A stretch of DNA of 32,370 nt from Jimgerdemannia flammicorona. Lineage: Eukaryota. The stretch lies in contig RBNJ01000353.1 of assembly GCA_003990765.1 (NCBI GenBank), forward strand, positions 1 to 32,370, in the 5' to 3' direction. Below the pieces are notes generated by a model. That model was not told the DNA's origin, did not search any database, and saw only the letters and a list, made by a program, of their open reading frames with translations. The position numbers and the translations under genes were made by a program. Shown piece by piece: positions 3,281 to 32,370 of the stretch; the first letter of the stretch is position 1, and the number at the start of each line of letters is the position of its first letter.

Positions 3281-3756
3281 TGTAACGTAGCAGACGCTTA
3301 CTCTTGAAAGTATGTCGGATTTCTGTATCTTGAAAACTTGACTGTTCTGACTCTTGCAGAGTCTCTTGAAGTTGCAGGGGAGGGTGGGTGAGTTCGAAGT
3401 GTATCTGCACACAGGCTTACTAGTTCTTTTGCTATATCTTTGCTTTGAACTATTTCGATCTGAGGTTTATTCACTCGAAGATACTGGGTTATTTATACAA
3501 GTTTGCTAGCTATGAGAGGGTGGCTAAGTAATAAATGAGTCATTTGGACTTTGTTGAAACATTTGGACAATGTCTAAATACTATACTAAATCGGGGTATT
3601 CGATTTGGATAATGTCTAAAATTTAGACAATGTCTAAGAATTTAGACAATGTCGAAATCAAGGACTGCTAACTATAAGGCTATACTACTTTGGAAATGGA
3701 TGCGATCAAGTGTCTATTCCCTATTTCCTTCTTCCATATTTGGCTGTACCATTACA
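3281..3756 (-). repeat. 3' LTR (476 bp)
   Basis: tgtaacgtag...accattaca; aligns end to end with 9500-9976 (by-eye count ~45 substitutions + 1 indel). Minus-strand TATAAATA (3490-3497) and AATAAA (3466-3471). Confidence 0.96.
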
Positions 3757-3770
3757 ACTTCCTCCTGAAT
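3757..3770 (-). promoter_or_regulatory. Polypurine tract
   Basis: Minus strand attcAGGAGGAAGt directly abutting the TGTAAT start of the 3' LTR. Confidence 0.75.
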
Positions 3771-3793
3771 AGATGGTCTCATCCTTGAGGCAT

Positions 3794-4255
3794 CTATTCA
3801 AACTCCCAGGTTTCAACAGTCTGTATGGTCTTGTACTGTACAATTTGCTGCATGACTGTTTCCCAATGATGTCTTCTCACTTTCTCGAAGTCGGTAGGGG
3901 TTACTCCTCTCAGGTGGTCTATCGCTGCTTCATCTTCTCGGAATAACTTGTGGATCCTTTTGGCAATAGTGATCTGTGAGTGGGAGAGTTGACACTCAGC
4001 AATCCAGTCCTCCTTGGTCTTTGCTGGATCCTGATTGAGCACCTGTCCAAGCTTGAAGTACTCTTGGAATTCTGCCTGATATTGATAGACTCTAAAGTGT
4101 AAGATCCAAGAGAGATGAGTTTGCACAATACTCTGAATATCCTCATAGTATGGCTCTATAGTCGGAGGCTCGGTGGTGTGCCATTGTCTTTCGATGGCTC
4201 TTTGGGCAGCACTAGTGATCTTGAGTGCTATTGCAGTACTTTTGTTACTGGCCAT
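3794..4255 (-). CDS. Accessory 3' ORF (153 aa) of the Ty3/Gypsy element, unknown function
   Basis: Open ATG-to-TAG ORF filling the space between integrase and PPT. Its ATG (4255) overlaps the integrase stop (TAA at 4245-4247; ATGGCCAGTAA). Confidence 0.7.
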   Translation of the reverse strand: MASNKSTAIALKITSAAQRAIERQWHTTEPPTIEPYYEDIQSIVQTHLSWILHFRVYQYQAEFQEYFKLGQVLNQDPAKTKEDWIAECQLSHSQITIAKRIHKLFREDEAAIDHLRGVTPTDFEKVRRHHWETVMQQIVQYKTIQTVETWEFE

Positions 4256-5420
4256 GATATTTCTTGAGTCAGTTTCAGTGAATGGTGGTGGGGATTATTG
4301 TGCCTGAGGGTTTTCGTAGCCAAAAGGTGGTCCCTCTTATATCTTGCACAAGGTAAGGTCCTTCCTACTTGGGCTCCAGTTTTCATGACCATGAAGCTTC
4401 CACTATATTCCGATACACTAGGACTTTGTCTCCTATCTTGATAATCTCCAAGGGCTTGTGGGTCTTTTCCACATTCCTCTGTTGTAGTGTCTGCGCCTTG
4501 GTTATGTAATCCTCAGCCTTCTTCCTGATTTGGTGTAGTCTCCATATTTCCATGTCCACATGTTTCCATACAGCATCTCCATTGGATGATAGGGTTCCTT
4601 GAGAACATTCTTCTCCGAATAGTATTTCTCAAGGGGTAAAGTGAGTACTTTGTGATCGGATATCTTGGAGAGCAGATAGTGCTATTGGCAGATAGTGATC
4701 CCAGTTCTTGTAGTTATCACAGATCTTGGCGATAACATTCTTGAGGGTTTTGTTGGTCCTTTCTACTTGTCCATTTCCTTGGGGGTGATAGGCTGTGGTC
4801 CGAATGTGCTGGATCTTGTACTTCTTGTAGAGAACCTCAAATAGCTGGTTCACAAATTCTGTTCCTCTATCTGTAGTTACTTGTGTTGGGGTCTTGAACC
4901 GACAGATGATTTCCTTGTGGAAGAAATCAGTAATGGACTGTGCATTGGCTTTCTTGAGAGGTCCTGCTTCTATCCACTTTGTAAAAAGGTCTATGATGAC
5001 AATGATGTATCAGTTACCAGTCAGGGTCAAGGGTAGAGGGCCGATTACATCTATTGCTATATGGGCAAATGGTACTGGTTCTATGTGTACTGATCCTGGG
5101 GCTTGATTCCATTGGTCTTGTTTCTGTTTCTGGCATTTGTCGCATGTCTTGACAAATTGTCTGATATCTTCCTCCATCTCTGGCCACCATATTGTTCTTC
5201 TTGCCTTATCATATGTATTCATTCCTCCTAGATGGCCAAGTTCATATACTGATTTCATCGCTTGCTCCTTCTTGTGTTCTGGTATGACCAGTAGTTTTCC
5301 TTTCTTCAGTGTTTCTCTGTCAGTTTCGAATTGTTTCCATGTCCTGTTGATAATCATTTGTGTCTATTCTTCCAGATGTTGGGGCATCTTTCGCTGTCCC
5401 AGGTATGTGATAATTCCATA
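4245..5420 (-). pseudogene. Integrase region of pol (zinc-binding, DDE core, GPY/F; no chromodomain)
   Basis: GHLGGMNTY...CDKCQ, IAIDVIGPL, TDRGTEF, TTAYHPQGNGQVERTNKTLK, KLEPK*EGPY; several in-frame stops. Confidence 0.95.
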
Positions 5421-5475
5421 GTAGAGCTTCTTATTCATGATTGATTTGTTGGTTGGAGGTAGTTCAAGGTGTCTG

Positions 5476-6750
5476 TCAGAGAGCATCTGCATTGGAATTT
5501 GTTCTTCCAGGGCGGTGTACAATGGTTATATCATAGGCTTGTAACTTCATTATCCATCTGGCATAGATACCCTTGGGTTGTCCAGTTGTCAGTAGCCAGG
5601 TGAGAGCTGAGTAGTCCATCTGGATGGTGAAGTGTCTTCTGGCCAGGTAGTAGCGGAACTTTTCCACAGCCCAGATGACTGCAAGGCATTCCAACTTATA
5701 GGACTTGTATTCTTTTTCAGCCCCTCGGGTTCCGCGGCTAAGATATGCAATGACATACTCTTTTTTGTCTTCTTTTTGAGCTAGGACTGCTCCTAGTCCC
5801 TGTGCACTTGCATCTGTCTGAAGGATAAATTCTTGGGTCCAATTGGGTCATCTGAGGATGGGTGCCTGAGTTAATCTGACCTTGAGTTCGTCAAATGCTT
5901 TTTGTTGTTTGCCAGTCCACTGGAACTTGGTATCCTTCTTGTTGAGTTTGTAGATTGGATCTGCAATGTTGGAGAATCCTCTAATGAATCTGTGATAGTA
6001 GGAGGCAAGTCCCATGAAGGCTTGGGCTTCTGTAACAGTAGTAGGCCTTGGGTATGCTGCTACTGCTTGTATTTTGAGGGGGTCCATGTGTATTCCATCT
6101 CGATTGATAATATGGCCAAGATCGGAGATCTCGATTTCTGCAAACTTACACTTCTTGGGTTTGATATAAAGGCCATGTTGTCTTAGTCTCTCCATTATCT
6201 GCTGTATGTGCTGCAGATGTTCCTCAGGTGTCTTGCTGTAGATTATTATATCATCAACATAGACCATCATCTATCTTCTCATGTCATAGCAGAAGATTTT
6301 GTTCATCATTCGCTGAAAGCTTGCTGGTGCATTGCACATTCTGAATGGCATTCATAGGTAGATGTAGGTTCCATCTGGGGTAATGAAGGCTGACTTTTCA
6401 CTTGCCACTTCTGTGAGTCCGATTTGGTGGAATCCTGAGTATAAGTCCAAGGTGCTGTAGTACTGTGCTTCATCTCCCAGTGTTATAAGAATGTCACTGA
6501 TGAGCAGCAGTGGTTGGCGATCCTTCTTGGTGACTGCATTGAGCTTTCTGTAGTCGACACAGAGCCTTGGGGCAAATTCTCCAGGTTTGCTTCCTTTTTT
6601 CGGGGCTAGTACAACTGGTGAAGACCAGGGGCTACTGGCTTCTTTGATGATGCCAGCTTCTTCCATCTACTTGATTTCTTCTCTGAGCCATTCTCGGTAG
6701 GCTGGTGGGACAGGTCTTGCCTTCTGGTAAATTGGTTCGGTGTCTCTGGT
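5476..6750 (-). pseudogene. Reverse transcriptase and RNase H region of pol
   Basis: SSPWSSPVVL, RLCVDYRKLN, LDLYSGFHQI, YVDDIIIYS, QTDAS, LECLAVIWAVEKFRYYL, HRPGRTNSNADAL; one frame with scattered stops. Confidence 0.97.
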
Positions 6751-6951
6751 ATCTACCTCGTGATAGTAGTGTGGGGTCTTTCCCTTGATATCCTTGAAAT
6801 CTGTGGCAAGGACATCCTCGAATTTGTGGAGTATTTTCTTGAGTTCTTCCTTGAGTGGGAATTTGTCTCCAATGGTATAACTGTGCTTGCTCATGTTTTC
6901 CTCCTTCTTATGCTTGAGTTCGGTGATCTTGGTGCTGGCGAATACTCGTCT

Positions 6952-7368
6952 TCCTGTCGATCCGAATCCTTTCTTTCCTCTTTTCATTTCCTCCAGATTC
7001 TTGACTTCTATGATCCTTGGCTGTATGATTGGGAAGATCAACATCTGTGCCAATCGGTCCTTCTTCTTGACTGGGAATGGAATTGTAGGATTATGGTTCC
7101 TAGCAATGAGTAGAATTTCTCCAGTATAGTCTGAATCAATGATTCCTCCTTCGATTGTGATTTCGCTTCTAGCCAGGCTGCTTCTTGTCTTGAGAATCCC
7201 AACATGATCCTTTGGGATGGTCATCTCCAGTCCAGTTGCGAGTAGGGTGGTTGTCTGGGGTTCTAGTATAGTTTCTTCTACTGTAGCAATGTCCATTCTA
7301 GCTGCATTTTCTGACTTGTATTCTGGCAAGACTGCATCAGAGTGGATCTTTCGAATCTTGACCTTGAT
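6952..7368 (-). CDS. Trimeric dUTPase domain embedded in pol between protease and RT
   Basis: All five dUTPase motifs in order in ORF 6667..7752: AARMD, RSS, GIIDSDYTGEI, DRLAQM, RGKKGFGSTG; same frame as PR and RT. Confidence 0.95.
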
Positions 7369-7699
7369 TTCTTCTTCATCATCACTGTTCTCCAGGAGGG
7401 CTGGTGGTTCATCATCTTCCTCCTTCTCTTCCTCCCTGATCTGTTTTTCAAGAGCTTTCTGTCTCCTTTCCTGGTAGATCTTCTTGGTTCCGATGGTGCA
7501 CTGGTAGCAATCGTTGACATGCTCTATACAGTACATCTTGATTCCATGAGGACAGACTCCTTGTGGGGCATAGCCTTCTGCGATCTTCTTGCACCATTCT
7601 TCTTCACTCATCCATCCAACTTTCTTCTTCTTTGGGGTAGTCACCATATAAGCTTCCTCTTGCTCACTCTCTTCTTCCTCCATATTGGGCAGGACTCCT

Positions 7700-8075
7700 T
7701 TGTTGATGTTGATGGGAATTTGTATCTTCTGTCCTCGGTAGGTGATCTGCATCTTCTGAGCATTGAGATCGATTACTGCCTTGGCTTTGTGAAGCCATTG
7801 ATTGCTGATGAGGATGTCATAGTTGGTGGCATTGGTTATGATTACATCTACTGGGATTGTTGCTCCTCCAATCTTGATGGGAACATCTCAGATCTTTCCC
7901 AGAGGTGTGGCTCTTGTGCCATCGGCTGTGACAAATACTAACTTAGTTGCTTCTTCCACATCCCAACCTAGGCAGTCTGCTGCCTTCTTACTGAGGAGAC
8001 ATCCTCCTGCTCCTGTGTCAATGATGGCTTCAAAGACTCAATCCTTAATTTGGCATGTTGCATAAGCAGAGGTTT
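7700..8075 (-). pseudogene. Aspartic protease domain of pol
   Basis: AIIDTGAGGCLLS (DTG at 8011-8019)...YDILISNQWL; two TGA stops at Arg-like positions. Confidence 0.92.
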
Positions 8076-8079
8076 TGCG

Positions 8080-9385
8080 ATTGTCCTCACTTTCCTCTCC
8101 TGAGTCCTCTTGAACATTATTGGCCTTGGTTATCTTCCATCCTTGTTCCTTGGTTGTTTCGGCAAGTCCAAACCTCATTTGCTGTCTGAATGTTGGGATT
8201 TCTGTAAGCTGGCCAAAGGTTGCATTGACCTTTTGTTGACTGAGATCCTTGAAGATATCATACTTGAAGGTTTTGGTCTTGCGAAGCTTCTTTTCTTTTT
8301 CTCCTTCACTGGCTGGAGTGGTTCCTCAGATGATATCTTGAACTGCTTGCTCTAGCTCGGTATCTTGGTCTATCTCTTCGGCTTGACTTTCTGTGGCAGT
8401 TTCTATCTGCTTTTCCACTGGGTTCTTCTTTGGTCTTCCTGGCGGTCTCTTGTAGGGTTCTTTGCGAGTATCCTTCTTAGTGGTCTGAGCAGGATAGGCC
8501 TCCAATTCCTCTTCATCGGATTCTCTGATTTCTTCAAAGGTGATTGTATTGGCCTGCTCCTTGTTTTGTGTGACATTGCTTGGTTGAGTCTTGCATTTGG
8601 TTTCACTCATACATTTATAGGAGTAGTGGCCTTCTTCTTCACAGCTGTAGCAGGCACCTTTCTTTTTATCTGAGGTGGTGGCAAACTTCTGAACAGGGCA
8701 GCAATCTCTTCCTCGGATTTTCTTTACCACATCTCCCAGGTGGGCAGTCATTTCAGCAAACCTTTTGGCAAGTTCCTCCATAGGGTCACTGTTCTTTTAC
8801 TGCTCTGTAGCTTTTGGCTGAGGTGTGTTTCAATTGATCATTGTGGTGGGGATTACACTGGTTGCCTTGGGTGCCTCAATTCTGACTCCTGTAACTCTTT
8901 CCATTGTATGGTCTTGTGGGTGTCTGGCTATCCAGAATCACTGGTGATGAGCAGATGGCCATGACTATTTCTGGATGGACTCCTTTCATAAAGGTTGCTT
9001 CGGCTACTTGATCTTGGATAGCAGCAGCATAATCTGCAAGGATTATCTGATATCGAATTCTGGTATAGAATGTGTTTGGGTCCTTGCTCATTCCTTGGCA
9101 TGTTGTGTTGAGCTGATCCTTCAGGGCTTGCTTGATCTCATCTGTGTAATATGTATTTTGGAGCCAGGTCTTCTGTGCTGTCAGTATGGCATTGGCATCA
9201 TTTCCTGCATGGGTTGCGGCTGTGAATGCTGCTCTGGCAGGGCCTCGTAGGCTAAAGAGCATGAGGGCTACTTGCTGTGCTGCTGTCAGAGTCCTTACAG
9301 CAGCATACTGCTCGAAATCGTCAATGAAGGTGATGATTGATTCATCTGAGGTATATCCATGGAATACTGGCAGTCTCATATCCAT
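8080..9385 (-). pseudogene. gag (capsid-like N-terminus, CCHC zinc knuckle, AT-hook-like motif), in frame with pol from 8781 onward
   Basis: LPVFHGY...FIDDFE; CYSCEEEGHYSYKC (Cx2Cx4Hx4C); KRPPGRPKK; YDIFKDL...NATFGQL; frameshift/deletion near 8800-8930. Confidence 0.88.
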
Positions 9386-9481
9386 CTTGTCTGGGTATTG
9401 GGGCTCAGTTTGTATAGTTGTTCGGATAGTGGTGGTTGTTCATTGTTCAGCTTGAAAGTGAGGGATTCATCTTGAATCACC

Positions 9482-9496
9482 AGCCAATGGACACCA
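9482..9496 (-). promoter_or_regulatory. Candidate tRNA primer-binding site
   Basis: Minus strand act-TGGTGTCCATTGGCT, 3 nt downstream of the 5' LTR; begins with TGG, complementary to tRNA CCA. Cognate tRNA not determined. Confidence 0.6.
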
Positions 9497-9499
9497 AGT

Positions 9500-9976
9500 T
9501 GTAATGTAGTGGACACTAAGATGGGCAAGTACGTCGGATTTCTGTATCTTGAAAACTTGACCATTCTGACTCTCACAGAGTCTTTTGAAGTTGTAGGGGA
9601 GGGTGGGTGAGTTCAAAGTATATCTGCCCACAGACTTATTAGTTCCTTTGCTATCTCTTTGCTTTGAACTATTTTGATCTGAGGTTTATTCACTCCAAGA
9701 TACTGGGTTATTTATACAAGTTTGCTAGCTATGCGAAGGTGGCTAAGTAATAAATGAGTTATTTAGACTTTGTCAAAATATTTGGACAATGTCTAAATGC
9801 TATACTAAATCGGGACATTTGATTTGGATAATGTCTAGAAATTTAGACAATGTCTAAGAATTTAGACAATGTTGAAATCGAGGACTGCTAACTATAAGGC
9901 TATACTACTTTGGGAATGGGTGCGATCAAGTGTCTATTTCCTATTTCCTTCTTCCAAATTTGGCTGTACCATCACA
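9500..9976 (-). repeat. 5' LTR (477 bp)
   Basis: tgtaatgtag...accatcaca, direct repeat of 3281-3756. Confidence 0.96.
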
Positions 9977-12900
9977 CTATATATTTAATTAAAATAGAGT
10001 ACTAAATAGCCTATAATGGGGTTTTTTAACAGAATAAGACTGTCTCAGCTTTAGTTGATTACTTGAGAATATATAGAGTTCATCTTGTTTGAGAATATTT
10101 ATCTTTCTACATATATATATCAAGATTTCTAAGTTCTTATTTGATTTAAAGAAGAGGTTTCTGGGGTCTGATGGTATAAAGATTTTAAAGATAATCTACT
10201 CTCCTGATTGTTCTTGAGGAGTTTAACTGATTGGTATTATACTTATTGAGGTATATATTCTTCTTAAAGTAGTTGACTTAGAGGAGATATACTTTCTTCT
10301 TATCTGAGTTTCTAAATCTTTTAATTTGTCTTATACCTTAGATCAGTTTACTATATTTCTTCTTTCTTCTTTTATATTTAGAGCTGACTATACCAGATGA
10401 GTCATCTCAATAATCTCAAAAAAAATATTTAGAGTACTTGTAATTTTTAAGATAAGTGGGGTATTCTTTGACATAATCTGAAATAGCTCTGATTGTGATA
10501 GAGATTATATCTTATATCTATATATTATATCCTGATCTATAATCTACTAGATTGATTTATAAGTAAAGCCTGGGCTCATTTTTGTCTTTAGATTCTTTCG
10601 CTTCCTCTATAGTAGATTCTTTACTACTGGTGTATTCTTTCTGAATAATAATCTTTTTCTTTTTCTTTAACTGCTTATAGCTAATCACTTTGATATGATA
10701 CTTCTTTTCTCTATTATAGTCAAATTTAAGTATCTGTTAACTAATATCAATAACTACATTCATCTCTTTCATCTAGTTGGTACTAAGAATTATTATATAG
10801 GTGATAGCTTCAGTGACAATAGCCTTGAGAATAGAGAACTGAATATATTTAAGAGTAATAGTAATGTTTTATACTTCTTCTAGCAGTTGAGTTTAGGCTC
10901 TATTTGCTACTATAATACTAAAGTTGAACAGTCTATTGATGGATTACTGGAGGATGTCTAGGAATCTTTTAGTAATGATACAGATAGCTGCTCCTATATC
11001 AATAAGGATTTTCATCTTCTATCTCTATATAGATATGTGCTAATATATCTTTTAGCAGTCTGAATAGTAGTTGGTATAGATTTTTATTGTGAGATTAGAA
11101 CTCAGCCAGTACTAGATCTAGTGGTTCTTAATAAATTATTTTAAACCCTAATAGATGTTAATTACAAAAACTGCAGAAGAGAGACTTCTATTTTAACTTT
11201 CAGAATATTTTCCAGACTTTATTATAGATATCTTGAGGCATAGTCTTTAGGGTATACATATTTTTGGATTTTGAGATTATTGACTCTTATTCTTTCTACT
11301 CTATCTCTTTATCTTCTGGTAAGAGGTTTTCTTTGAAAGTTGTAATTTTAGAGATAAAAAGAAATAGAGACTGGAGAGGTGTTTCAATCTGCTCTTCTTT
11401 ATCTTCTCTATCTTCCTCCTGAATAGTTCTTTTGTTTACCCTTCTAGATGGCCTTCCTACTGGTCTTTTTTTTTTTTTTTTTTTAGCAGAGTAGACTGTT
11501 CGTTTATAAATGACTTTAATTGAATATAAGTCTAGATCACTATAGTCTTCACTATTACTTCTCTCTACAGAGAGGACTTCAGTCTTCTTATACTGAGTTG
11601 CATTCTTTCAATTTGATAGTTCTGAGTCTCTTCAGTTATTTTTTATATTATTACATTCTGTAGTATAGTGTCCAAACTATATATAGTGGAAATATTGAAC
11701 TTGGACTCTATCTCAGTAGATACCATCTCTCTTCTTATATCTTATAGCTTTTTTTATTTCTGGATAAGTAGTCTTGATTTCATTATAGTATATAACCTCT
11801 ATTATCTTGTAGATAGTTCCAATTATTATATATGGTGAGTTTTTTTTATTTGTCTAACTAATTAGTCTAGTTTAGAGGTGAGGTCTTAGATTTCATTCTT
11901 ATTTATCTTTTATTTCTTTGTGGTTTCCTTTTCTCTTAAAGGATTCTTTAGAGAGTCTTGATCAAGAGATCTTTCTTATCTTCTTTCTTATTATGATTCT
12001 AAGTAATTTCTTGCTTAACATCAAAGTATTCTTAAGCTGTATCTATTCATTCATCAGACTTCTTAATATCAAGAGTCCAGACATACTGAGTAATATTTAG
12101 AGAAATTCTATTCATAAAGATCATTGGACTAATAATGCTTAATTAGTAATACTAAATTCAGTAGTATATATTCTCTTTTGAATTCTTATAAAGAATACTC
12201 TTGGAGATTCTCTGAGATTTATCTTCATTTTTATGATAGATTCTTGAGCTTTATAGTGAGTTTCTGTTCTTATATACTTTTCAATAAACTAATGGAATCT
12301 GGCTTTATACTGATCTATATAATAGTATATATTGGCTATAGCTTATTCTAGATCAGAGTTTAGATTATTTAATATTCTGGTGAAGATTCCTTTGACTAGT
12401 TCTCTTAGTTATATCTTGAAGACTATAATTTATCTTCTGGAAGTAAGGTCCTTCAGGGTTGCAATTTCTTCAAAAGTATCTAGAAATTCTTTTGAGGTTT
12501 CTACTAGATATCTTATAAATTTAGATAGTAGTACTATTATTTTGTCATTACTATCTTCTGGTTCTTCTTTTGTTTCTGAATTTGTTTTACTTATTATGAG
12601 TATACTAAGTCTAGTTTAGTTACTGAAGGTTGAGAGAGTTGAAAGATGTATACTTGGTCTTTAAAGACTGATACTTCTCTTAGTATTCTTAGGATACTAG
12701 GCTTAGAGGATCTATAGGTCCTAGTAGTGGTGAGATAGATAGAACTTTAAAGTTAAATAGAAATTTGATAATATGATCTTTAAGTTCTTATACAAGTTTG
12801 TCAAAATTTGAGTATAGATTTTTTATATTATCTAATTGATCTGACTGGATCAGATCTTTTGGTAGTAAGTCTTCTAGTATTTCTCAAGTATTGACAAGTT

Positions 12901-14168: not shown

Positions 14169-15560
14169 TCTAGCTATAATGATTATTCATTATAAAATAA
14201 AAAATGAATAGCTTCTGTAAGTTGAATTATATAAGAACTAGTACTATAATTATATAGTATTTAAGTTTCTTAAAAGCTAAGTTTGTAGTTTCTTCCATTT
14301 ATATAGTATTTCTTTCTTAAGTAAGATTCAGATTGGTGCAGTAGTTTTGATAAAATTTTGATAAATCTTCTATAGTAAGATACCAGTATTAAAAAGAATA
14401 GTGCTTCATTCAGAGTTTTGGATATTGATCAGTTGTTAATCTTTTTAGTTTTCTTTAAGTCTATATAATTTCTTCTTTAGAAACTATAAATTGAAAGAAT
14501 TAAGTTCTGCTTTCCAAAGTAGTAATTCTTGATATTGAGTCTGAGGTAGTTCTTTTAGATATATTGAAAGAATTCTTCTAGTATTTTATAAAATTTGCTG
14601 AATAAATATTAGAGTCATCTATATAGATAATTAGACAGTGATAGATCAATAGAATATAGACTGAGTTTATCATTCTTTAGAAGGTTGGGAGTGCTTTGTA
14701 AAGTTGGAAGGATATTTAGAGATATATATTTAAATAGTTTTTCCAAGATGAGAAAGGCTGTCTTTTAAATATTCTTGAGATTTATAAAGATCTTATAGAA
14801 TTCTATAAAGAGATCTATACTCTAAGTATCTGATATTCTAAATTAGTCTGGGAGGTCATCAATTTGGAGTAAGAAATAATTATTCTTTTTTATTACTAAA
14901 ATGAGCTTCTTGTAGTCTATACAGACTCTCTGTCTTCTTTTCTTTGATACAATAAATATAGAGCTAATCTAGGGACTAATAGAAGGTCAGATAACTCTTA
15001 TTGTTCAAGAGTTCTTAAATATATTTTTTCTCAAATATCTTTAGGTAGTGGGTATTCTATAGAGATTCTATTAACTAGGTGTTGTATTTTCTATATTTAT
15101 ACTATAAAGATATGATCAGTTATAGAGTAGATTATTAGGGTCTATAGTAAAGATATTCTGATATTTATGAAGAAGTTCTACTAGTTGATATTATTGATAT
15201 AGTATCAGTTCTCCAATATTGATAATAGGCTTTACTATCTTTTAGATTATAGTGAGCCTTTCCTTTCTTCTGAGATGTTTTTCTATTTCCTGATAAATTT
15301 AGTACTTAAGGTAGAGCACTAGATGACCTATGATGGTTTTCTTTGACAAGATGATACTATTTCAGCTTTAGTTAATTACTTGAGGATATATTAAGTTCAT
15401 TTTGTCAAAGAATATATATCTTTTTATATTAAGATTTCTGAGATCTTTATTTAGTTAAAGAAGATATTTCTAAGATCTAATAGTACAAAGATTTTGAAGA
15501 TGGTCTGCTCTTCTGATTCTAAGATGAGATTCTTATAGACTTTGACTAACTGGTATAGTA
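14169..15560 (-). mobile_element. Older Ty3/Gypsy RT fragment
   Basis: RVCIDYKKL (~14905-14930), LLQIDDL, IIYIDDSNIYS (YIDD 14614-14625); 15310-15550 is homologous to 9990-10235. Confidence 0.85.
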
Positions 15561-15834: not shown

Positions 15835-16052
15835 AGTAATAAGAAAGTTCAAAGTCAATAAGACAGGAATGTTTTGGGCATTATGTGGAAGATATAAATA
15901 TCTCATTGAGATATAAGACAGAGTAAAACAGTAGATTGTATAATACTGCACCTATACTGTAATAGTTTAGTAATTGTTTTCTTCTTTGCGCTTATACATC
16001 TGTCTATATATAATTATACATTTATCTATACCATATTCATTTTTGCTATTAT
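15835..16052 (+). repeat. Ngaro repeat A1
   Basis: caataagacaggaatgttttgggcattatgtgg...ctgtctatata matches 29401-29590 (caatgaggtaggaatgttttggacattatatag...ctgtctatata). Confidence 0.85.
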
Positions 16053-16699
16053 TCTTACTATTAATTCATACTTTTTTTTTTTTTTTTTTTTTTTTTTCTA
16101 TACTTATTTATTCAGAATATAATTATAAAGTAAATTGAAGAAAAACATCTTTCAGATTTCCTGACAAGAAAGTAAGTATGGTCAGGCCCTAAATAGAGTA
16201 GCCTTAGATGACCCCATATCTAATCTTAGTAAGATCAAGATAGCTGGGGTCTGGTTCTCTCTACTCTGAGCTACTTCTACCCTCTCTCTTCTCACTAATA
16301 ACGATGTTCCCACCAAGGCTACAACCAGCCCCCTCATATAAATAATATATATAATTGTGAAGTAAGAAATTAAATACCATACAGATCTGAGAAAACTCCA
16401 ATAATAAGATACTTTACTCTACCTTGACTGACCATTACTAATCTATATACTTAATAAATAAGTCTGCTATCTAACCACCACTCTCCCTGCCCTGCTCTGA
16501 GTCAGAGGTCACTATCTGGCTTGTGATACCAATACCTCAAGTGGGTACCAATTCATATCTGGTCTTGCCCAAAAGGGCTGCTGAATATGACATCAGTACC
16601 TTGAGTACCTCTATAGCTAGTGCTCTGAACAAGTCAATTCAAATCAAATCTGGATTCAATTTGTCACATAATGGTTTGATCTAAATCTCAAATCCAAAG

Positions 16700-16970
16700 C
16701 CATCTGAATCAACTTGGATTAATCCAAATCACCCCATCTGAATTGCTCCATCCAAATCACTCATCCAAATTACTCTATCTGAATCACTTTATCTGAGCTA
16801 CTCCATCTGAACTACTCAATCTGAATCACTCAATCTGAACTACTTAATCTGAATCACTCAATCCAAATCCTCTAATTTGAATTCTTCAATTCAAATCCTC
16901 CAATTCAAATCCTTCAATCTGAATCCTCATCCAAATCCTTCAACTGAATTCTCCAATCTGAATCCTCCAC
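16700..16970. repeat. Left subterminal repeat array of the hAT (~14-bp units, atctgaa/atccaaa core)
   Basis: More than 15 copies of aatctgaatcactc / atccaaatcactc variants. Confidence 0.85.
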
Positions 16971-17219
16971 ATGACTCATATGCTGGATGCATTCATATAT
17001 ACAATATATATATATAAACATATACATATATATGCAAACATATAAATATACATATTGACAGATCAGTCTTCAACAGTTTACAGTACTAATAATGCTTCAA
17101 GTCAAACATCTCTGATAGTTCTACACCTTCTATATAATTCTCACTCCAAAATCTGACAACATTATGCTAAGATAGAAGATGATAATTTTTTTAATTATTG
17201 CAAGTAAAAAATTAAGATG

Positions 17220-19625
17220 TACTTATTGATATAACTGATACTTGTGTTTAATATACACATGATACTATTTCATCCACTCTTATAAACTATATCAGCCTGA
17301 AGTTCAAAATGCTTGATGGTACAACTTTGAATATATATTGATATATAAAAGACAAATACTCTAACAAAATCAAAAAGAACATAGAGATAAATAAAATTGA
17401 CATCCAAGCTATAGTGGGTATGTTTATCCAATTGCCTGACTATTTCTGTACCAACAACCCCATTTAATCAAAAATATTTAGCCATACTCTTCAGCAGAAT
17501 TTTGAAATTGGCTCATTTGCTGGATTGTATATACAGACCAGCCATTCACAACTATCAAGAGTAATCAACTGCATAGCATCTTTGGTCTCCTCAAGTATGA
17601 TTTATATTTGCCAAGTACTGATACTATTTACAAAGATATTCTGGAGGCCTATAGGAAGGAGCATGACAATCTCCACCAGATACTTCAGATAAAATAAGGA
17701 CAGTACTATGACCTTTGCAAGCTGAATTATATATATATTTTTATAAAAAGCTCATCAATTTAACCTCACATTTAATAAGCAGAATTCAGCAGGCAAAATT
17801 TCATTTACAATCAACATATAGATATCCCTCAATACAATTTTGTTTCTGAGCATTACCAGTTATTAGATTGATCTCAATTGGCAGCTTAAATCTCTCACCC
17901 TTGACTTCATCAAACTTACTGGCCCTTATTCTAGAGACAACATCATAGATGCTTTTATTAGTTATATTTGAGAGCTTGGGATCACAACTAAGATAAAAAA
18001 GGAGGGCTTGTCATCAGGTCAGCATTTTGAGAGAGATTCTAAAACAAAATGGATTTTATTGGTTATTTATTTTCACATAAATTTGCTGACTGAATATTTC
18101 AAGTACAGATTTTGGCCATTACAACAGACAATACCACAAACAACTCAATATTTTTCCAAGTTTTAGCAATCAGCCTCAAATAGAAAAATGTGGCCTTCAG
18201 TATAGAAAACTACCATGTACAATGCCAGGCCCACATACTGAACCTCATTGTTCAGGACTATCTTATGTATATATATAGACAAAACATCTGACAGAGAAGG
18301 GGCCCTGAGTATAATTTCCAAGCTGTGCAAACTGGTTGTATTGGTCAAATTATCTCCACAATAATGAGACAAATTTGCTATACAGTATAGAGCAATCAAT
18401 TTAGCCCTGAAAGAGCTTATATTGGATATCTGTATGTATTAGAACTCAACATTTGCAATGATCCAGCACATGCTGGAGTTTGTTATAGTATGCATTCTTT
18501 TTTCTTTGGTTGGCTGAAGCAACTTGTTTTGGATAATTGAAGATTTTTTTTTTTAAAAAAAAAAAAACAAAAAAAGCCAATAGATTCAATGGTGGCCACT
18601 GACAAAGAAATATGGGGCAAGGCTCTAGGTGAAAGTGAGTGGGACATACTTAGGAATATTGTCAGAGTTTTGGAAGTAAGTAGTAATTACTCTGGCTCCA
18701 TACTCATTTTATCTACCTCTGCATAATACAATACCTCACCACATATAACTGCTAGTGTTTTGATGATTGTATGAAAGATATAGTCAAACAAATGACCCTG
18801 ACAATGAGCTCTATAATATCAGTATACAACCTTCTGATTGACTGGCTAGAAAATAAGCTCAAGAATAGGCTAGAGGGTTGTGGTGATTTATAGTTAAGCT
18901 CAGATCAGAGAGATGCCATAGAGGTTGCTCTAAGCAAGCACAGAAAATACTACTCCAAAACAGATACCACTGTATACTCAATCAGTATAGATATATTGGT
19001 GTGTGGCTATTACTTCTTCTAAAATAGAGAAATCTCTGCAAAAACTTACTCTCTTTTCTCTGAACAGTGCTGGACCCATGCTAAAAGCTACAATACCATA
19101 AAGATCAGAGCTAGAAACAGCACTTCATTGAGAGAACCAAGTAGGCTGTAATTGAAGTATACTGGAAAAACTATACACCACTGCAAGGTTCTGACTATAG
19201 TCTAGACAAATATACTGAGAGATCTCTTCTGTCCCACATTTACTTCAGCAGAAAGAGAAAGAGAGAGCTATTAGTGGAAGAGCTGCTGTCAATAGACAAA
19301 CTTACCATTTACCTTGCCAGTAATCATGTAATTCTGCTAGAGGGTACAGAGGTACTCAACTGGTGGAAGGTGGGTTGTCAGACAGACATTGGGCCAATTT
19401 AACCCACCAATCTAACCACTGCTCTATCCACCAGGGCATGCAGCTATATCAAATGGACTTCTCTAGCCTATATGGGACTACCTGGTGATTCCTGCCTCCA
19501 GTGCTCCTATTGAGCAGGTGTTCTCAGGTAGGGTGAATCATGTTGCCCCAAAGAGGTATATGCTGAATGCTGAGACAATCTGGGCATATATGTGTCTGAA
19601 GTCTTGGTGGGGCTCAGGCTGCTAA
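17220..19625 (+). pseudogene. Intron-containing hAT transposase pseudogene (start approximate)
   Basis: WIVYTDQPFTTI (~17520), GKISFTINI*IS (~17792), LDFIKLTGPYS, ITTDNTTNN (~18118), CQAHILNLIVQ (~18223), LILDICMY*NST (~18416), WWK/DYLVIPASSAPIEQVFS (~19476-19527), MCLKSWW then TAA at 19623-19625. Confidence 0.95.
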
Positions 19626-19754
19626 AATTTGGTAAGTCCTGGAAGTTTGCAGATTAAGTTGGCCTTGTGGAATTTTTAATACTTTTCAAAAATAAAACTA
19701 AGGACTTAGCCCAGAGTTTATAGCCCAAGTGGGGTAGTGATTGGTAGGGTTAGT

Positions 19755-20292
19755 AGCAGCAGAGGGAGTGTACAAAATTTGTGGCCCTCCACCAGCAGCA
19801 AGGAGCAGCCCCAAGCTGTCAGAGCCCCAAGCTGTCAGTGCTCAGGTCAGTGAGCATGGGGTTGGCAGAGGGAGTATGCAAAATTTGTGGTCTTCTGCTG
19901 GCAGCAAGGGGTAGCCCCAAGCTACAAGTGTCCAGGATGAGGGGGTTGGCAGAGGGGGGGGGGGTAGGTGGAGGAAGTGTGCAAAATTTGTAGCCCTCTG
20001 CCAGCAGTGAGGGGTAGCTCCAAGCTGTCAGTACCTAGATCAGTGAGCAGGGTTGGTTGGTAGGATTGATGGGCATGGGGTCAGTAGAGAGAGTATATAA
20101 AATTTGCAGCCCTCTGCCAGCAGCAAGGGGCAGCCCCAAGCCATAAGTATTCAGAACAGATAGGGTAGGTAGAGAGAGCACACAAAAGCACCAGCAGCCT
20201 GTATCCAGACCAGGGCTCAGCAGAGTTGGCAGAGGGAGCATGTAAAATTTGCAGCCCTCTGTCAGTAGCATAGGGGCAGCCACAAGCTGCCA
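19755..20292. repeat. Five ~65-bp palindromic repeats separated by variable spacers
   Basis: Consensus ggcagaggg-agtgtgcaaaatttgcag-ccctctgcc-agcagcaaggggcagccccaagctg; aaaattt cores at 19774, 19880, 19983, 20099, 20244. Confidence 0.9.
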
Positions 20293-20306
20293 AGGAGTCT
20301 GAGTCT

Positions 20307-20412
20307 GGGTCAGAGGGTACTTCTAGTGGTCAGAGGGTACTTCTGGCAGTTGGAGGGTGCTTCTGGTGATCAGAGGGCATTTCCAGTGGTCAGAGGGTGC
20401 TTCCAGTGGTCG
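20307..20412. repeat. 20-bp tandem repeat, ~5.3 copies
   Basis: tggtcagagggtacttctag and variants. Confidence 0.92.
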
Positions 20413-20649
20413 AAGTCCACCACAGATTCAGGCCCTATCACTGGTTTGAGTCTCATGGGCACCCTGGCCCTGCATCACAGTGCTGCACCAGTGGCACTAC
20501 AAGAGCAGAGCCAAGGGGCTAGTAGGGCCCAACATAATGGCTAAACTAGTACTACAGAAGAGGCACCCAGCTGCCAGCCCAATCTGCACAAAATGACTGC
20601 TAAACCCTCATGAAAGATTGCCTAACCCTCATGAAAGATTGTCTAACTC

Positions 20650-22729
20650 TTACCAAAACTGCTCCACCCACTGGTCCCAGGCCTTGATGAGCCTGTTATC
20701 TATTGTGAGTGTGATGACTGTTGTGTCCAAGCTCACCTCAAAGGCAATAGTACTATGGTGGTCATGTGGTTGGAATAGAATAGCCATGTTGGCCACAAAT
20801 GGGACCCCAAAACCATAGGTGAGATTATACCAGACTCTACTACTATCCTCCCAGGTTGGACCCTTCCTTTCCAGAACATAGAACATTACCAAGGTAATAT
20901 TGTTATCTGTGTGTGTGGGCAGAGAAATATTGTGCCTGATATATCCTGATATGATCCAAACATATGATTGGATAAATCCTTGGCCCAGGACCTCGTACTG
21001 TCAGACTGTACTGATGGATACCTGCTCTTGGTCCAGCCCTGGGTGCCCTAGCTTGGAAATCTACCAGATGGACAGTATCTGGTCAGTCCTTTTTACATAT
21101 GGGGGAGCAGAAACCCCCTGGGCCACAGAAATCCCCCAGGTTGCAGCATCTAAAAAAAGTGGAGCTCCTCACCTCATATGGCATGCTAAATTGTACCAAG
21201 AATATATATATAGCTATGGAAAGATCACCACCAAGCTGGCCTACTGTATGCTCTACCAATCTGCTCAAAGAACCTCAGATCATAACCACCATTACTGTAT
21301 AGACTGTGTTGTGCTTATATGTAGTTTGCTCTTTGATGATACTTCTAAAGTTCTGGTAGGGGTACAGAATCTTGTGCATCTCTAGAATTGTATCAAAAAG
21401 AGTATATTAATGAAAAGTGTGATTATCTGGAGAGGAGTAAAAAAAAGAGATATGAGTGTGGAGGATTTTAGAACTCTAGAATCCACCTTTTGCCAATGTT
21501 GCAGTATACCCAATTCCCATCCCTTGCTTTTTTCACTCCCTTTTTCCTGCCACTCAGTATTTGACATAATCTTCACAAACCTCATTGATGTAGTGGCAAA
21601 GCTCATTGCTATAGAGATTCCTTACCACCATTGCAACCACCTCTTCAAATTCATTAATAATGATATGGTTCTCTTCATCATTGGTTACTCCTGCTGGCCA
21701 ATGGATCCCTTGGTCAAGAATGATTTGCTCTGATTCAAATATAGACCCCCAAACCTTAATGATGATGCTAGTACTACTCATGCTGAATATCTTACCCTCA
21801 AATTTCTCTATTTGATCAGATACTAGACATGGTTGAACTTGGGTAACTTTGAACTCTCCTTTCCAATAGAACTGAGCCCTAATCTGAGGAATCAAGATAA
21901 GTATGCAGACAGGTTGCATGTGGATAAGTTGCATATGGATGAGTTGCATATAGATAGGTTGCATATAGATGAGTTATGTGTGGGTGGGTTGTATGCAGGC
22001 AGGTTGTATGTGGATGGGGTGTATATGGGTGTGGGTGTTTTTTAGAGGGAGACTATGTAAAAAATGAAGTTAAATAAAACATGAAGATGGGTATTTCAGA
22101 AAAAGAGTATAAGTGAGTGAGTGAGTGAGTGAGTAAGTGAGTTGTATGCCAATGAGTTGCATGCTAATGAGTTGCATGAATTGCATGAGTTGCACAAGAT
22201 TGCTCATGAAGGCTTGCTTCTGTTCCTTTTGAGACCTCTGCCATATGATATATTGACTCAACAGCTCAGCCACCAAAGGTATGCTCCATAACATCTGCCA
22301 GTCTTTCTTCATCTTGACTAGATGTTACAAATAAAGTTGGCAGATCTTGCCATAGAGCTGTAGACCCTAAGAAAAGCATGAGGTGAATTGGGTCATGCTG
22401 GGGAAATTTAAATAAACACAAGTAAACAAGTAGCAGCAGAGTGAGCAATCTATATCTACTATCAGCTGCTCCAAAAAGGCTGCTGCATATATAGCTGTGA
22501 GATCTGTAAATTTTGAGGTCCAAAGGGCTACTGTGAGTTGTTGCCAGAATTCTCTCTTATCCCCACCATTGCCACTGCTACTGCTATTGCTATCACCACC
22601 ACTATCACCACTACTATTGCCTCTTTGGCTCTCAATGAGCAGCTTGTATGCTACTCATATGAGAAAGAATCTAACATTGTCAGCAGATAGTGTATTTCTA
22701 CCTTGAATACTCTCTCTTTTGATAATCAT
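20650..22729 (-). pseudogene. Five-exon cargo gene encoding a putative TET/JBP-like 2OG-Fe(II) dioxygenase (~504 aa, 7 in-frame stops)
   Basis: Exons 22729-22460, 22366-22196, 21883-21487, 21381-21173, 21117-20650 join via GT-AG introns with no frameshift. Last exon reads HNISLPTHTDNNITLVMFYV...WYNLTYGFGVPFVANMAILFQPHDHHSTIAFE: HxD at 20905-20913, distal His at 20755-20757. Confidence 0.7.
21905..22195. repeat. 15-bp and 9-15-bp (gagttgcat) tandem repeats plus (GTGA)n microsatellite inside intron 2 of the cargo gene
   Basis: aggttgcatgtggat / agttgcatatggat units 21905-22010; gagttgcat units 22140-22195; gtga run ~22112-22140. Confidence 0.8.
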
Positions 22730-22945
22730 TATAGGGTAAAAATGAGTAGACTAGACTAATGTATAATTAAGGGCTGCTGTTTTGTTTGCTTGTGATGCAG
22801 CAGGAAAGAAAAAAGAACAAAGAAAAAGAATAGAGAAAGAACAAAAGAAGAGAGGGAATAAAAGAAAGGATGATGTTACCAAAGTGCAGCAGGAAAAAAA
22901 AACAAGAGCAAAAATAAACAAAAGAAAGAGTGATATCATCAAAGA

Positions 22946-23060
22946 TTTCAATCCAGATGAATCAATCCAGATGGATCAATCCAGATGGATCAATCTGGAT
23001 CAATCTGGATCAATCTGGATCAATCTGGATCAGATCATGAGACCAATCTGAGTTGATTCA
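22946..23060. repeat. Right subterminal repeat array of the hAT (10-14-bp ggatcaatct/atccagat units)
   Basis: atccagatggatca x3, then ggatcaatct x4-5. Confidence 0.88.
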
Positions 23061-23789
23061 AATCATCACATGACAAATCTGAATCGAATCTCATTCAGAT
23101 CAACTCCATCCATTCAGAGTACTACCTATAGCACTATACTCAGCCTACCAGCCCCCCTCTCTCTAAAGTAGAAAAGATGTCACCCTGCTGATTATCTTGC
23201 TGAGTATTGCACTATCACTAGCCAATCATCTGGCCTAATTATCACTACTATCCTGCATCACACTATTTGTCAATTATTAATCATTAGTCACTATTATACC
23301 ATGTATTGAAATTACCTCATCTGCTTCAACCAATTACTTATTATACTTTCTGAAATCCTCCAAGCACTTTCTGAAATTGCTTGAGCCACCTCTATATCTT
23401 GAAGATATAGTGAAAGTCTCCCTAGTGTGAAAGAAAGCCTAAGCATCTGACCCATATTCCTCAGTCTACCAGAGTATACCAGTAAGTTAGATGCTTACTA
23501 CAAAGTCAGCTCCCCCACTGGAAGAATGACTCCTCATCTCCTTAAGTTATTAACAGTGGCTCCCAGAGCCTACATTACACCATCTGGTCAACAAAATGAT
23601 AGAAACCTTGAATTCTTAAAAACTGTAGCCTTGAGATTGGGGCAACTCAACACTAGACTTCTCTTCTCTCACTACTAATTCATATCTTCTTTATCATTAT
23701 AAACTCTCTAATATCTCCAAAGATCAACATAAACTCAACTCTCCTACCTGTCTACTCTACACTGATATCTCCTTTATTAAACAGGTACT

Positions 23790-29213: not shown

Positions 29214-29373
29214 TTTTTATTTAGGTCAGTTTTACTGTAATATTTTTCTCTTTATCTCATTTCACAAATACATACATTGACTATAATGATTTAGTTTTCT
29301 CAGTTCTTCATATGGAGTTTCAGAACTTAGAAATATATAGCATAAGCTTCAAATAATATAACCATATGTTGAA
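29214..29373 (+). repeat. Ngaro repeat B1
   Basis: 160-bp ungapped direct repeat of 29615-29774. Confidence 0.92.
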
Positions 29374-29614
29374 TAAGGAGATTTATTAGAATTTATAAAT
29401 CAATGAGGTAGGAATGTTTTGGACATTATATAGAGGGTACAGATATCTTATTAAGATGTAAAATAGAGTAAAATGGTAGATTGCATAATACTGTATCTAT
29501 GCTGTATTAGTTTTGCAATTATTTTCTTCTTCATACTCATATATCTGTCTATATATTCATATATACTATATTTGTTTTCACTATCTCTCTCCCCCTTGTC
29601 TTATCTCTTATATA
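29374..29614 (+). repeat. Ngaro repeat A2
   Basis: Direct repeat of ~15835-16052, sandwiched between B1 and B2. Confidence 0.85.
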
Positions 29615-29774
29615 TTCTTATTTGGGTCAGTTTTACTGCAATATTTTTCTCTTCACCTCATTTCTCAAATATATACATTGACGACAATGACTTAGTTTTC
29701 TCAGTTCTTCATATGAGATTTTGGAACTTAGGGACACACAGCATAGGCTCTGAACAGTATGACTATATGTTGAA
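29615..29774 (+). repeat. Ngaro repeat B2
   Basis: 160-bp direct repeat of 29214-29373. Confidence 0.92.
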
Positions 29775-31190
29775 CTTTGTCTAATATTAGATATATAATA
29801 GTTGAATTCTAGAGCAATCAGAGAGATTAGTCTGCTGAGATAGTTCTCATCATAGATATGACTAAGAAGTATACTGCAGATATCTCTTTCAAAATATTAT
29901 ACTATATCTCAGCTCTTCTAAATAATATGAGCATATGTTCTATATATTAAATTTTCTACTAAATATATAAAATAGAATCTCTATATATATCTGCTTACTT
30001 ATAGTGATCACCTCTTTATTAATACACAATCTCATTACAATCTGACTGCCAACTAACTTTGAAATTGGTTATCAGAATATATGATAATTATCAGTATTGA
30101 TTCTATTTACTATCTTTATACTAACTGTATAGATCTACTGAGATATTGAAGAAGAGGACACTAATTAACAAGGTTCTTGAGAGTGGAAATTAGTGCTCTA
30201 AGACTACTTTCAAACATTATTATCATCTGTCCCATAAGACACCAGTCCTCTCCAAATCCCCTTGTGCCAAATTCATCATTTATACAGTCCTCAAATACAA
30301 GGCCTCTATGCTGGTCCAGCATTCTACTTGCCTCCATTCTACAAACAACTAACTCTGAAATGGTCCAGAACAAAGCAACACTTAGTCCCAGATGGACTTC
30401 AGTGCTATAGGTACTGAAGTCTGTCCCAGACTTTGCAAGCATTGCGGAGGTCTGTGAAGAATTGGTTTTCTACCCCTTATCAATTCTCGAACGACCCTAC
30501 CCTTCTTTCCTTATGGTTTTTCTGATTTTTTTTTTTTCCCTTTCCGGGCATCTTCGTCGCCCTTCTCCTTCCAAGTTTTCCTTCTGCCCACGTGCCAAGC
30601 TTCCTGGGCTAAGGGACTCGAGGGGAGTCGAGGGGTTTCTTTTATTGGGACTACGGTCTTGTCTTAATGTCTCAATCACATATGTCAGTAGAACATGTAA
30701 TTTCGCACAAAACCATGTCTAAGACCCTATATGAGTCACGTCATACATATATAAATACTCCATTGCCACATAGGAAATTTAGCCAAATATAGAGGTTGGA
30801 CGTCCCCGTCATGGAAGTCATCTTTACACTCCGAATCACTTCTTAATCCTACCCCGCACAGTCAACAGATTTTAATTACCCGCCGGGACTGTGGGTCGTG
30901 AACACCACTATAGATAAAAGAGGCAATAATAAAGCCCCGCAATGATTGCGGAGATGGAATTCATACTTTGACTAGGTATACTATGCTGCTGCAAAATGTA
31001 ATCCGTGCAAATGGGCAAGGTGACATTGAGTAGCTTCGTTAGCTTGATAGGCCACAGATAATAATCTAAACTTTCGCCGAATTCCACATATGAGCAACAC
31101 ACACGACGTCCGCGGACTCCCGTCCGTCCACAAAGTCGTATAAATTGAAACAATTCAACCAGTCAAAGCGAAAATCCCCAAAAAGACCGA

Positions 31191-32370
31191 ATGAAGCCCC
31201 GCTATTATCCTCACGTCGTCGGGGCGGCGATCCTCTTCGCCGACCTCCTGCACGCACAGACATTTTCCGGGCAGGCACCTCCTCCCAACACTGCAAACGC
31301 GCTATGGTATAGGTCACCCGGGTCTGACTGGGTTACCGATGCTCTTCCAATCGGTAACGGATACCAGGCCTCAATGGTAAGGATGCATTACGTCGTTTTG
31401 TAATAAACTTCCATACAGAACCTTTCACTTATCCAATTCGATATTTAAAAGGTGTTTGGTGGTGTTGCGGCTGATCGAATCCAACTGAACGAAGAAAGTT
31501 TATGGGCAGGCGGCCCGTTCGAGGACCCGCTGTATTCAGGAAACAATGATGTCCTTGCCAACAGGCAAAAACACATCGACGGCATCGCTGCTTTGAGAAA
31601 TATAATCGCGCAAAGCGAATATAAGTCCACCAGCGCTAACCAATCAGGGACACTTTGGGGTAAGTATCGAAAACAATTCCGTGACCTTTTTTTTTTTGTG
31701 GCATCAGCGCGGTTGCTTCTATACCTTATTTAATATTATTATTTTATTTCCATTCTCACCTCCTTTTTCAGGCGTGGGCGGATTTACGCAATACGGTACA
31801 TTTTTTTTTTTTAAAAAAATATTCTTACAATTGCCAGTGTTCTTCATCATACCCCTTGATCAATTTTGCAGGATCTTACCGTACACTAGGAGAATTGTAT
31901 ATAAATTTGACTGCTCCGACCAGGTTAGTGAGAACGTTTTGCAGTCTCGAAATTTTTTACAATTACTTATATTTATTTCGTTTTCAAAAACAGCGTCATA
32001 AATTACCGTCGAGAACTAAACATGGATGAGGGCGTCGCTCACACCAGTTGGCAGAATCCCGATCTTTCTATTGTCACCAAAGACTACTTTTGTAGTTATC
32101 CGGATCATGTCTGCGTCTTCTCCTTGACCACCAACGCCACCAAGGGCGCAAGCTTCAATTTCAGCTTTCAAACACCGCAAACCGATCCAGTCGTTGCGAT
32201 TAGTTGCGCAAATAATGTCATCACATTCAGGGGACAAGCAGAGACCGGTGGAATGCAATTCGAAGCTCAAGCTCGAGTATGTTTATTTTTATTTCAAGCT
32301 TTATGTCATTATTTTTCGTAATGACGACGATTTTCATCCCGTTTTTTTTTTTTTTGGTTCAGGTTATTAC
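31191..32370 (+). CDS. Secreted glycoside hydrolase family 95 (alpha-L-fucosidase-like), 5' part; continues beyond the window
   Basis: Exons 31191-31376, 31452-31659, 31772-31795, 31872-31923, 31994-32276, 32363->end, all GT-AG and in phase. GH95 N-terminal motifs LWY..P...W..DALPIGNG, IQLNEESLWAGGP, GSYRTLGEL, NYRRELNMDEG, YFCSYPDHVCV; hydrophobic N-terminus suggests a signal peptide. Confidence 0.93.

Follow-up and report, generated by a model that had tools for sequence, protein, structure and literature searches.

A decayed hAT element in Jimgerdemannia flammicorona enclosing a convergent gene for a putative TET/JBP-like dioxygenase

Can a DNA transposon of the hAT superfamily carry a gene for a DNA-modifying dioxygenase, and does such a gene spare its carrier the methylation-dependent decay of host repeats? 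The question is raised by positions 16618-23124 of a 32,370-nucleotide stretch of Jimgerdemannia flammicorona DNA (assembly GCA_003990765.1, contig RBNJ01000353.1, positions 1 to 32,370; the whole stretch is called the window below). A preliminary description had proposed that this segment is a hAT transposon with a TET/JBP-like dioxygenase gene as anti-silencing cargo. The reading that we hold to be fairly probable is a long-dead single hAT insertion of the TET-plus class, with an 8-bp target site duplication (TSD) and, convergent to its transposase, an intron-containing gene of the TET/JBP kind that would encode a 2-oxoglutarate (2OG)-Fe(II) dioxygenase of double-stranded beta-helix (DSBH) fold.

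One hAT element around two genes

The segment 16618-23124 (6507 bp) is one hAT-superfamily element, in which a single set of terminal inverted repeats (TIRs) and TSD copies surrounds two genes. The left TIR TAGTGCTCTGAA (16618-16629, plus strand) and the right TIR (23113-23124, minus strand; reverse complement TAGTACTCTGAA) form a 12-bp pair that is complementary at 11 of 12 positions. Each is directly adjoined by a TSD copy, TCTATAGC at 16610-16617 on the left and CCTATAGC at 23125-23132 on the right. These copies agree at 7 of 8 bases, all but the outermost, where a T/C transition separates them; identity of at least 7/8 at fixed positions is expected by chance in 25/65536 cases (3.8e-4). 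The terminus consensus of hAT elements is YARNG, and the element start TAGTG fits it. The single TIR pair, the 8-bp TSD (with one mismatch) and the enclosure of both genes between them, as claimed in the preliminary description, were all borne out.

The two ends also share their internal organisation. Tandem Repeats Finder detected short repeats with periods of 14, 28 and 42 bp in the left subterminal region (16630-17000, plus strand) and repeats with the units TCAATCCAGATGGA and TGGATCAATC in the right one (22940-23112). The motif ATCTG[AG]AT, common to both ends, occurs 17 times there, 8 times in the left 383 bp and 9 times in the right 224 bp (22901-23124), and is absent from the 5.9-kb middle. 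An end of a second copy, from the same or a sister hAT family, was found by self-BLAST and alignment at 1-402 on the minus strand, where it starts with its TIR, TAGTACTTCAAA. It is more decayed and more A+T-rich than the main element, with 72 to 85% identity between 39-383 and 16637-17163. Its alignability to 16618-17163 begins exactly at TAGT and the preceding flanks are unrelated, so the left boundary at 16618 is independently confirmed. The cargo of this second copy is not visible, because the copy runs off the window after 402 bp of one end.

The plus strand of the element contains a decayed hAT transposase pseudogene at ~17400-19625 (start approximate; stop codon at 19623-19625). When the three plus-strand frames of 17000-19701 were scanned against Pfam with stops read as X, one of the three matched the dimerisation domain Dimer_Tnp_hAT (PF05699) at 19476-19607 (E 4e-6, 27 bits, cut-off 21.4), while the RNase-H-like DDE core of the transposase gave no Pfam match in these decayed frames. 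Two hAT-like stretches were recognised by eye, AITTDN at 18115 and CQAHILNL at 18223, which we take to be typical hAT core motifs. Numerous stops and shifts of frame interrupt this gene. The hAT transposase named in the preliminary description is confirmed by the dimerisation domain, but as a pseudogene.

The minus-strand gene and its place in the element

The second gene was identified through its last exon. A phmmer search with 172 residues of the last-exon frame against 1.84 billion representative proteins returned five matches, with E values from 9e-59 to 2e-5: P0001 (73% identity, E 9e-59), P0002 (49% identity, E 2e-27), and P0003, P0004 and P0005 (E 1e-8 to 2e-5). In tblastn, the 374-amino-acid protein P0004 was colinear with two minus-strand stretches of the window, its residues 92-202 corresponding to 21697-21362 (E 4e-7) and its residues 254-337 to 21000-20749 (E 3e-11). 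Of 23 stretches matched in a metagenome scan, two encode a relative; these loci, L001 (1-3666) and L002 (1-2870), belong to different records and are 99.0% identical over 2717 bp. They hold an intact, intron-containing homologue, with broken frames in the L002 copy, and both have a CpG observed/expected ratio (o/e) of 1.2. Two intron positions of L001 coincide with breaks in the window gene, one after ..A[KS]G and before MH..., the other before ..HP.LP.LD..

These data bear directly on the possibility that no second gene exists and that the open minus-strand frames arose by chance in decayed repeat DNA. The lack of any Pfam match, the heavy mutation and the upstream exons without support (see below) would agree with chance, yet E values of 9e-59 and 2e-27 to independent proteins, the colinearity with P0004 and the L001 intron positions speak against it. 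Chance frames are refuted by the phmmer and tblastn matches, and we give them practically no credence. Because of the protein matches, the colinear P0004 and the intron positions shared with L001, the minus-strand gene is, as judged from sequence comparison, a real one.

Three exons of this gene are supported by homologues. The large N-terminal exon lies at 21883-21485 on the minus strand and is supported by tblastn alignment to P0004 and to exon 1 of L001 (E 3e-7) and by alignment A2. The middle exon, at 21379-21173 on the same strand, falls within the tblastn alignment to P0004 residues 92-202, and its start, MHKILYPYQNFR, matches an L001 exon start, MHSCITPYRNFK. The last exon extends over 21060-20653, also on the minus strand, is followed by the stop TAA at 20652-20650, and is supported by phmmer (P0001 to P0005) and tblastn. 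Further upstream, minus-strand open frames at ~22330-22205 and 22654-22440 (region 22205-22654) are tentative exons that would include the gene start; one has a 9-residue match to an upstream exon of L001 (E 0.018), and the second gave no alignment. Of the five exons drawn in the preliminary description, three stand and the two upstream ones are not established. Its HxD...H signature was recovered as described, on the minus strand, where 20913-20905 encode HxD and 20757-20755 the second His; a 116-codon open stretch, 20650-21000, holds THTD, with the conserved His 50 residues further on.

Four in-frame stops interrupt the three supported exons, and all are TGA: two in the large N-terminal exon (21556 and 21535), one in the middle exon (21277-21275) and one in the last exon (21003-21001). 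The dioxygenase gene of this copy is therefore a pseudogene, a point that the preliminary description does not make. The TGA at 21003 corresponds to a Trp in P0001; the remaining three are compatible with former CpG sites at which CGA became TGA. We infer that the TAG at 21063-21061 is best read as containing the AG of the last intron acceptor and not as a stop.

A word-based homologue search with the 116-amino-acid exon gave no match among longer proteins; the same search with P0004 returned only P0004 itself and P0006, and with A1, an alignment of seven rows of the dioxygenase family, only P0004 and P0001. Looking up the protein clusters yielded no names. On L001, a second multi-exon gene lies downstream of the dioxygenase homologue at ~2200-3400, and short GATTTGA-type repeats at 3490-3620 are reminiscent of transposon subterminal repeats. 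A Pfam search of six frames found no transposase domain on the 3.7 kb of L001.

Between the two genes of the window element lies a G+C-rich tandem array, 19700-20420, placed between the transposase stop and the dioxygenase stop. It is built of ~106-bp units and, at 20308-20411, a 20-bp unit (self-BLAST, with pairs over 19757-20288, and Tandem Repeats Finder), and its GC content is 0.52. The array could mark a junction of acquired DNA.

Such a junction enters into a different history of the locus, in which the dioxygenase segment (~19626-22900, with the tandem array) came into an already inserted hAT and was never moved by it. It would have arrived by recombination or within another mobile element, for instance a Helitron-type one or some other TET carrier that lacks recognisable ends. 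Several observations weigh on that side, and hence against a passenger gene. The window holds one full copy only, and the outer TIRs and TSD do not demonstrate co-mobilisation, because a nested insertion would leave both unchanged. The 720-bp array at the junction is G+C-rich and of unlike composition. The two genes are also unequally preserved: the transposase keeps one 27-bit Pfam domain, compared with a 116-codon open stretch, 73% identical to P0001, in the dioxygenase. This better preservation would fit a later arrival and is no test of it. In addition, PMC12730594, a study of fungal transposons discussed below, describes Helitrons that carry TET genes, and a passive movement of such genes from one transposon family to another that leaves no terminal signatures.

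Against a late arrival, the dioxygenase segment has no inverted repeats around it that are accompanied by a flanking duplication. Searches for inverted repeats gave 2 at k=12 with up to one mismatch (shuffle mean 1.1) and 7 at k=14 with up to two mismatches (shuffle mean 0.8). The excess over shuffles came from only one low-complexity AGAGAGAGTAT match from an array unit, counted in overlapping windows throughout, none of which has a TSD. The preliminary description had likewise seen no separate TIR/TSD around the second gene, and none was found here within a search that repeat-less or decayed termini would escape. Moreover, the TET-plus transposons published in PMC12730594 hold the gene as an internal passenger. 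Overall, we regard a late, independent arrival as unlikely and retain a passenger gene within the hAT as the more probable reading.

The enzyme and the described TET-plus transposons

The protein family shows the residues expected of a 2OG-Fe(II) oxygenase. Across the seven rows of A1, the first His is present in all seven, HxD in five (HxN in the other two) and the second His in six, the seventh row being truncated. The metal triad of P0004 is H283, D285 and H335; the HxD motif reads THVD in P0004 and P0006 and THTD in the window gene, P0001 and P0002. In a language-model atlas, the top cluster for P0004 (score 0.96, 209 shared features) is from Basidiomycota and has PF20515 (2OG-FeII_Oxy_6), which we take to be a fungal 2OG-oxygenase profile, in 15% of its members. 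The cluster at rank 11 (0.91) has PF12851 (Tet_JBP) in 16%, and the neighbours of P0004 belong to Basidiomycota and Mucoromycota. Together with the short introns and the CpG-specific decay, these neighbours agree with a fungal host. The window exon alone gave only a lead of 0.84, to phage 2OG-FeII_Oxy_3 clusters.

From an alignment of 11 rows, P0004 was modelled with AlphaFold, and the model was compared with 48,161 representatives of the PDB. At least 47 of the 50 neighbours listed are Fe(II)/2OG oxygenases by title. The best structural neighbour of this low-confidence model is a Tet enzyme, and three NgTET entries rank first in a second comparison as well. A DSBH 2OG-Fe(II) oxygenase fold is likely for the passenger protein. 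Sequence identity between P0004 and the solved TET enzymes, namely Naegleria NgTET1 (4LT5, 5CG8), human TET2, Chlamydomonas CMD1 and Coprinopsis CcTet, amounts to 9-13%, at a predicted local distance difference test score (pLDDT) of 45 for the model.

The narrower assignment to TET/JBP meets several objections. The structural match to Tet comes from one low-confidence model of P0004 (pLDDT 45, predicted template modelling score 0.46); with a poorer model it was not reproduced, and Foldseek gave 0 matches at E ≤0.001 (best E 0.019). Pfam profile searches covered the window frames, P0001 to P0006 and the L001 exons. With the three minus-strand frames and five family proteins they gave no match at E ≤1 to Tet_JBP (PF12851), 2OG-FeII_Oxy_6 (PF20515) or other 2OG profiles, and with a further set including the L001 exons no relevant match at E ≤10. 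Neither phmmer nor two profiles retrieved a PDB chain, the only hit being noise (E 0.67), and accordingly no sequence-level match of the family to the solved TET enzymes was seen in these PDB searches; a PHROGs search returned noise only. Oxidation of 5-methylcytosine or thymine in DNA is a predicted activity of the passenger enzyme.

Because profiles, PDB sequence searches and Foldseek are silent and the poorer model does not reproduce Tet, TET/JBP membership is only moderately supported. Of the TET/JBP-like dioxygenase in the preliminary description, the 2OG-Fe(II) type and the Tet structural neighbour hold up, whereas the Tet_JBP profile match that it had suggested as a check did not appear at E up to 10. 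The passenger might instead be a 2OG-Fe(II) dioxygenase of some other kind, for instance an AlkB-like repair enzyme or a hydroxylase of proteins, captured from the host and with no role in DNA methylation. The silent profiles leave room for such an enzyme and the Tet entries at the head of the structural comparison point away from it; we judge it improbable, and continue with an enzyme of the TET/JBP kind.

The association itself has a precedent. Kojima (Biology 14:1741, PMC12730594, published December 2025) described TET/JBP genes inside 11 DNA-transposon lineages in fungi, hAT and ten others. The hAT cases comprise 20 TET-carrying families in six Puccinia species (rust fungi), and the enzymes fall into three types, PE, PU and AG. 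The same work proposes that they remove or alter methylation marks and so counter silencing and C-to-T hypermutation. It is the only publication found on hAT7 with TET. The preliminary description knew of no hAT-borne TET gene and inferred an anti-silencing role for it; since PMC12730594 describes TET-carrying hAT families, the claim to novelty fails, and the same role has already been proposed there. The window element belongs to these recently described TET-plus fungal DNA transposons, as a further example and not as a new kind.

With the Puccinia hAT7 families the window element shares a TET/JBP-type gene inside hAT TIRs and a fungal setting in which repeats undergo C-to-T decay linked to methylation (PMC12730594). 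The differences start at the ends. All 20 hAT7 families have a 7-bp TSD, compared with 8 bp (7/8 identical) here. An exact 7-bp TSD was considered for the window element, as CTATAGC occurs on both sides, but at the right end it is one base out of register; the 7 bases that adjoin the element ends are CTATAGC and CCTATAG, which agree at 1 of 7 positions. Since the 7-mer CTATAGC does not adjoin the right end, hAT7 membership by a 7-bp TSD was rejected. The consensus start of hAT7-1_PGr, the single hAT7 start compared, is unlike the window TIR, and neither this TIR nor three guessed CpG-restored variants of it gave a terminal match within the first 400 characters of the published TET-plus consensus starts that were available. 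In hAT7-1_PCor, hAT7-2_PCor and hAT7-1_PHor the TET gene lies upstream of the transposase in the same orientation, whereas in the window element it lies downstream and is convergent. The hAT7 dioxygenase is of PU type, and that of the window appears by eye to be nearer the PE type.

The likeness to the PE type was seen by eye against Table S1 of PMC12730594. P0004 and the PE type have the same order of conserved blocks: an N-terminal strand pair, a helix, ..SAG.., two helices, the metal motif, GG.F...G......N...W/F.P...HG[ST] and G[LM]S.V. According to the same source, PE-type enzymes are invisible to ordinary profiles (HHpred E 1.4 to CMD1) and structurally like CMD1, NgTET and CcTET; the window family is likewise missed by profiles and, in its model, TET-like by structure. 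Yet the hallmark of the PE type is HxE, as opposed to HxD (THVD/THTD) in the window family, and hAT is not among the PE carriers listed in the available part of the article, while the carrier in the window is a hAT. The 8-bp TSD, the convergent gene order and the PE-like block order, seen by eye, together with HxD are the unusual details of this element.

A more distant parallel is formed by the Kyakuja-Dileera-Zisupton and Plavaka transposons, which, after a study by Iyer et al. in 2014, reportedly carry TET/JBP genes. These basidiomycete DNA transposons resemble the window element in that a TET/JBP gene is linked to them, and differ from it in their transposase superfamily and in their TET/JBP types (AG, PU).

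These comparisons allow a further and distinctly tentative proposal, which we think may well not hold: the passenger could represent a fourth, unnamed lineage of transposon-borne TET/JBP-like enzymes, with PE block order and HxD, that was captured independently by a hAT with 8-bp TSD, not hAT7, and survives as intact genes with introns in environmental fungi that show no CpG depletion (L001 and L002). If true, it would extend the published classification (11 transposon lineages, three enzyme types) and would add a case in which carriage of the enzyme visibly failed to prevent CpG decay.

CpG decay, neighbouring repeats and meaning

The element contains 3 CpG in 6507 bp, a CpG o/e of 0.012, whereas GpC is normal at 0.96; the loss is therefore specific to CpG, the pattern that deamination of methylated CpG would produce. 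The copy at 16618-23124 is dead. Since both of its genes are pseudogenes and CpG is almost wholly lost, it underwent methylation and decay just as its neighbours did. The flanks have CpG o/e values of 0.03 and 0.02, so that the loss in the element equals that in the flanks and no protective effect is visible, a point that counts against an anti-silencing cargo. Because the element is as CpG-depleted as its flanks, this copy had no lasting protection in cis. For live copies, the CpG decay seen here neither supports nor refutes anti-silencing.

With a GC skew of about -0.36 to -0.4, the plus strand is strongly C-rich in both hAT flanks, and this similarity suggests insertion of the hAT into a single older repeat. 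The flanks also contain dispersed repeat pairs (75-83% identity), at 15852-16011 and 29397-29556, 29214-29373 and 29615-29774, and 9986-10209 and 15303-15518. A Gypsy-type long terminal repeat (LTR) retrotransposon on the minus strand, 3308-9976, has protease, dUTPase, reverse transcriptase, RNase H and integrase domains, and its LTRs (3308-3756 and 9527-9976) are 92% identical. Its CpG o/e of 0.27 marks it as younger or less decayed than its surroundings. At ~30000-32370 the CpG o/e jumps from 0.02-0.03 to 0.98, and within this CpG-normal part, on the plus strand, lies a gene in which a Glyco_hyd_65N_2 domain was recognised (E 2e-35, matching best at ~31986-32279). As this gene region is CpG-normal, the CpG loss is confined to repeats.

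In active copies of such an element, the transposase would cut and paste the whole unit, the dioxygenase gene included, and the dioxygenase may oxidise 5-methylcytosine on the element or in trans. Oxidation of this kind would weaken methylation-based silencing and reduce methylation-dependent C-to-T decay. In Arabidopsis, the transposon VANDAL21 encodes VANC, which reverses the methylation that the host places on members of that family. The likeness is one of functional analogy only, should the anti-silencing role hold; the host there is a plant, and VANC is no dioxygenase and has no relationship to the present protein.

The locus opens no new question, the association and the hypothesis both having been published in December 2025 (PMC12730594). 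As a copy that is CpG-depleted like its neighbours, it provides a natural counter-example for the anti-silencing idea. If confirmed, it would add to the independent captures of TET-like genes by DNA transposons a case in which a hAT with 8-bp TSD acquired a divergent HxD enzyme, and a further capture would lend weight to the idea that these events recur and are for that reason under selection.

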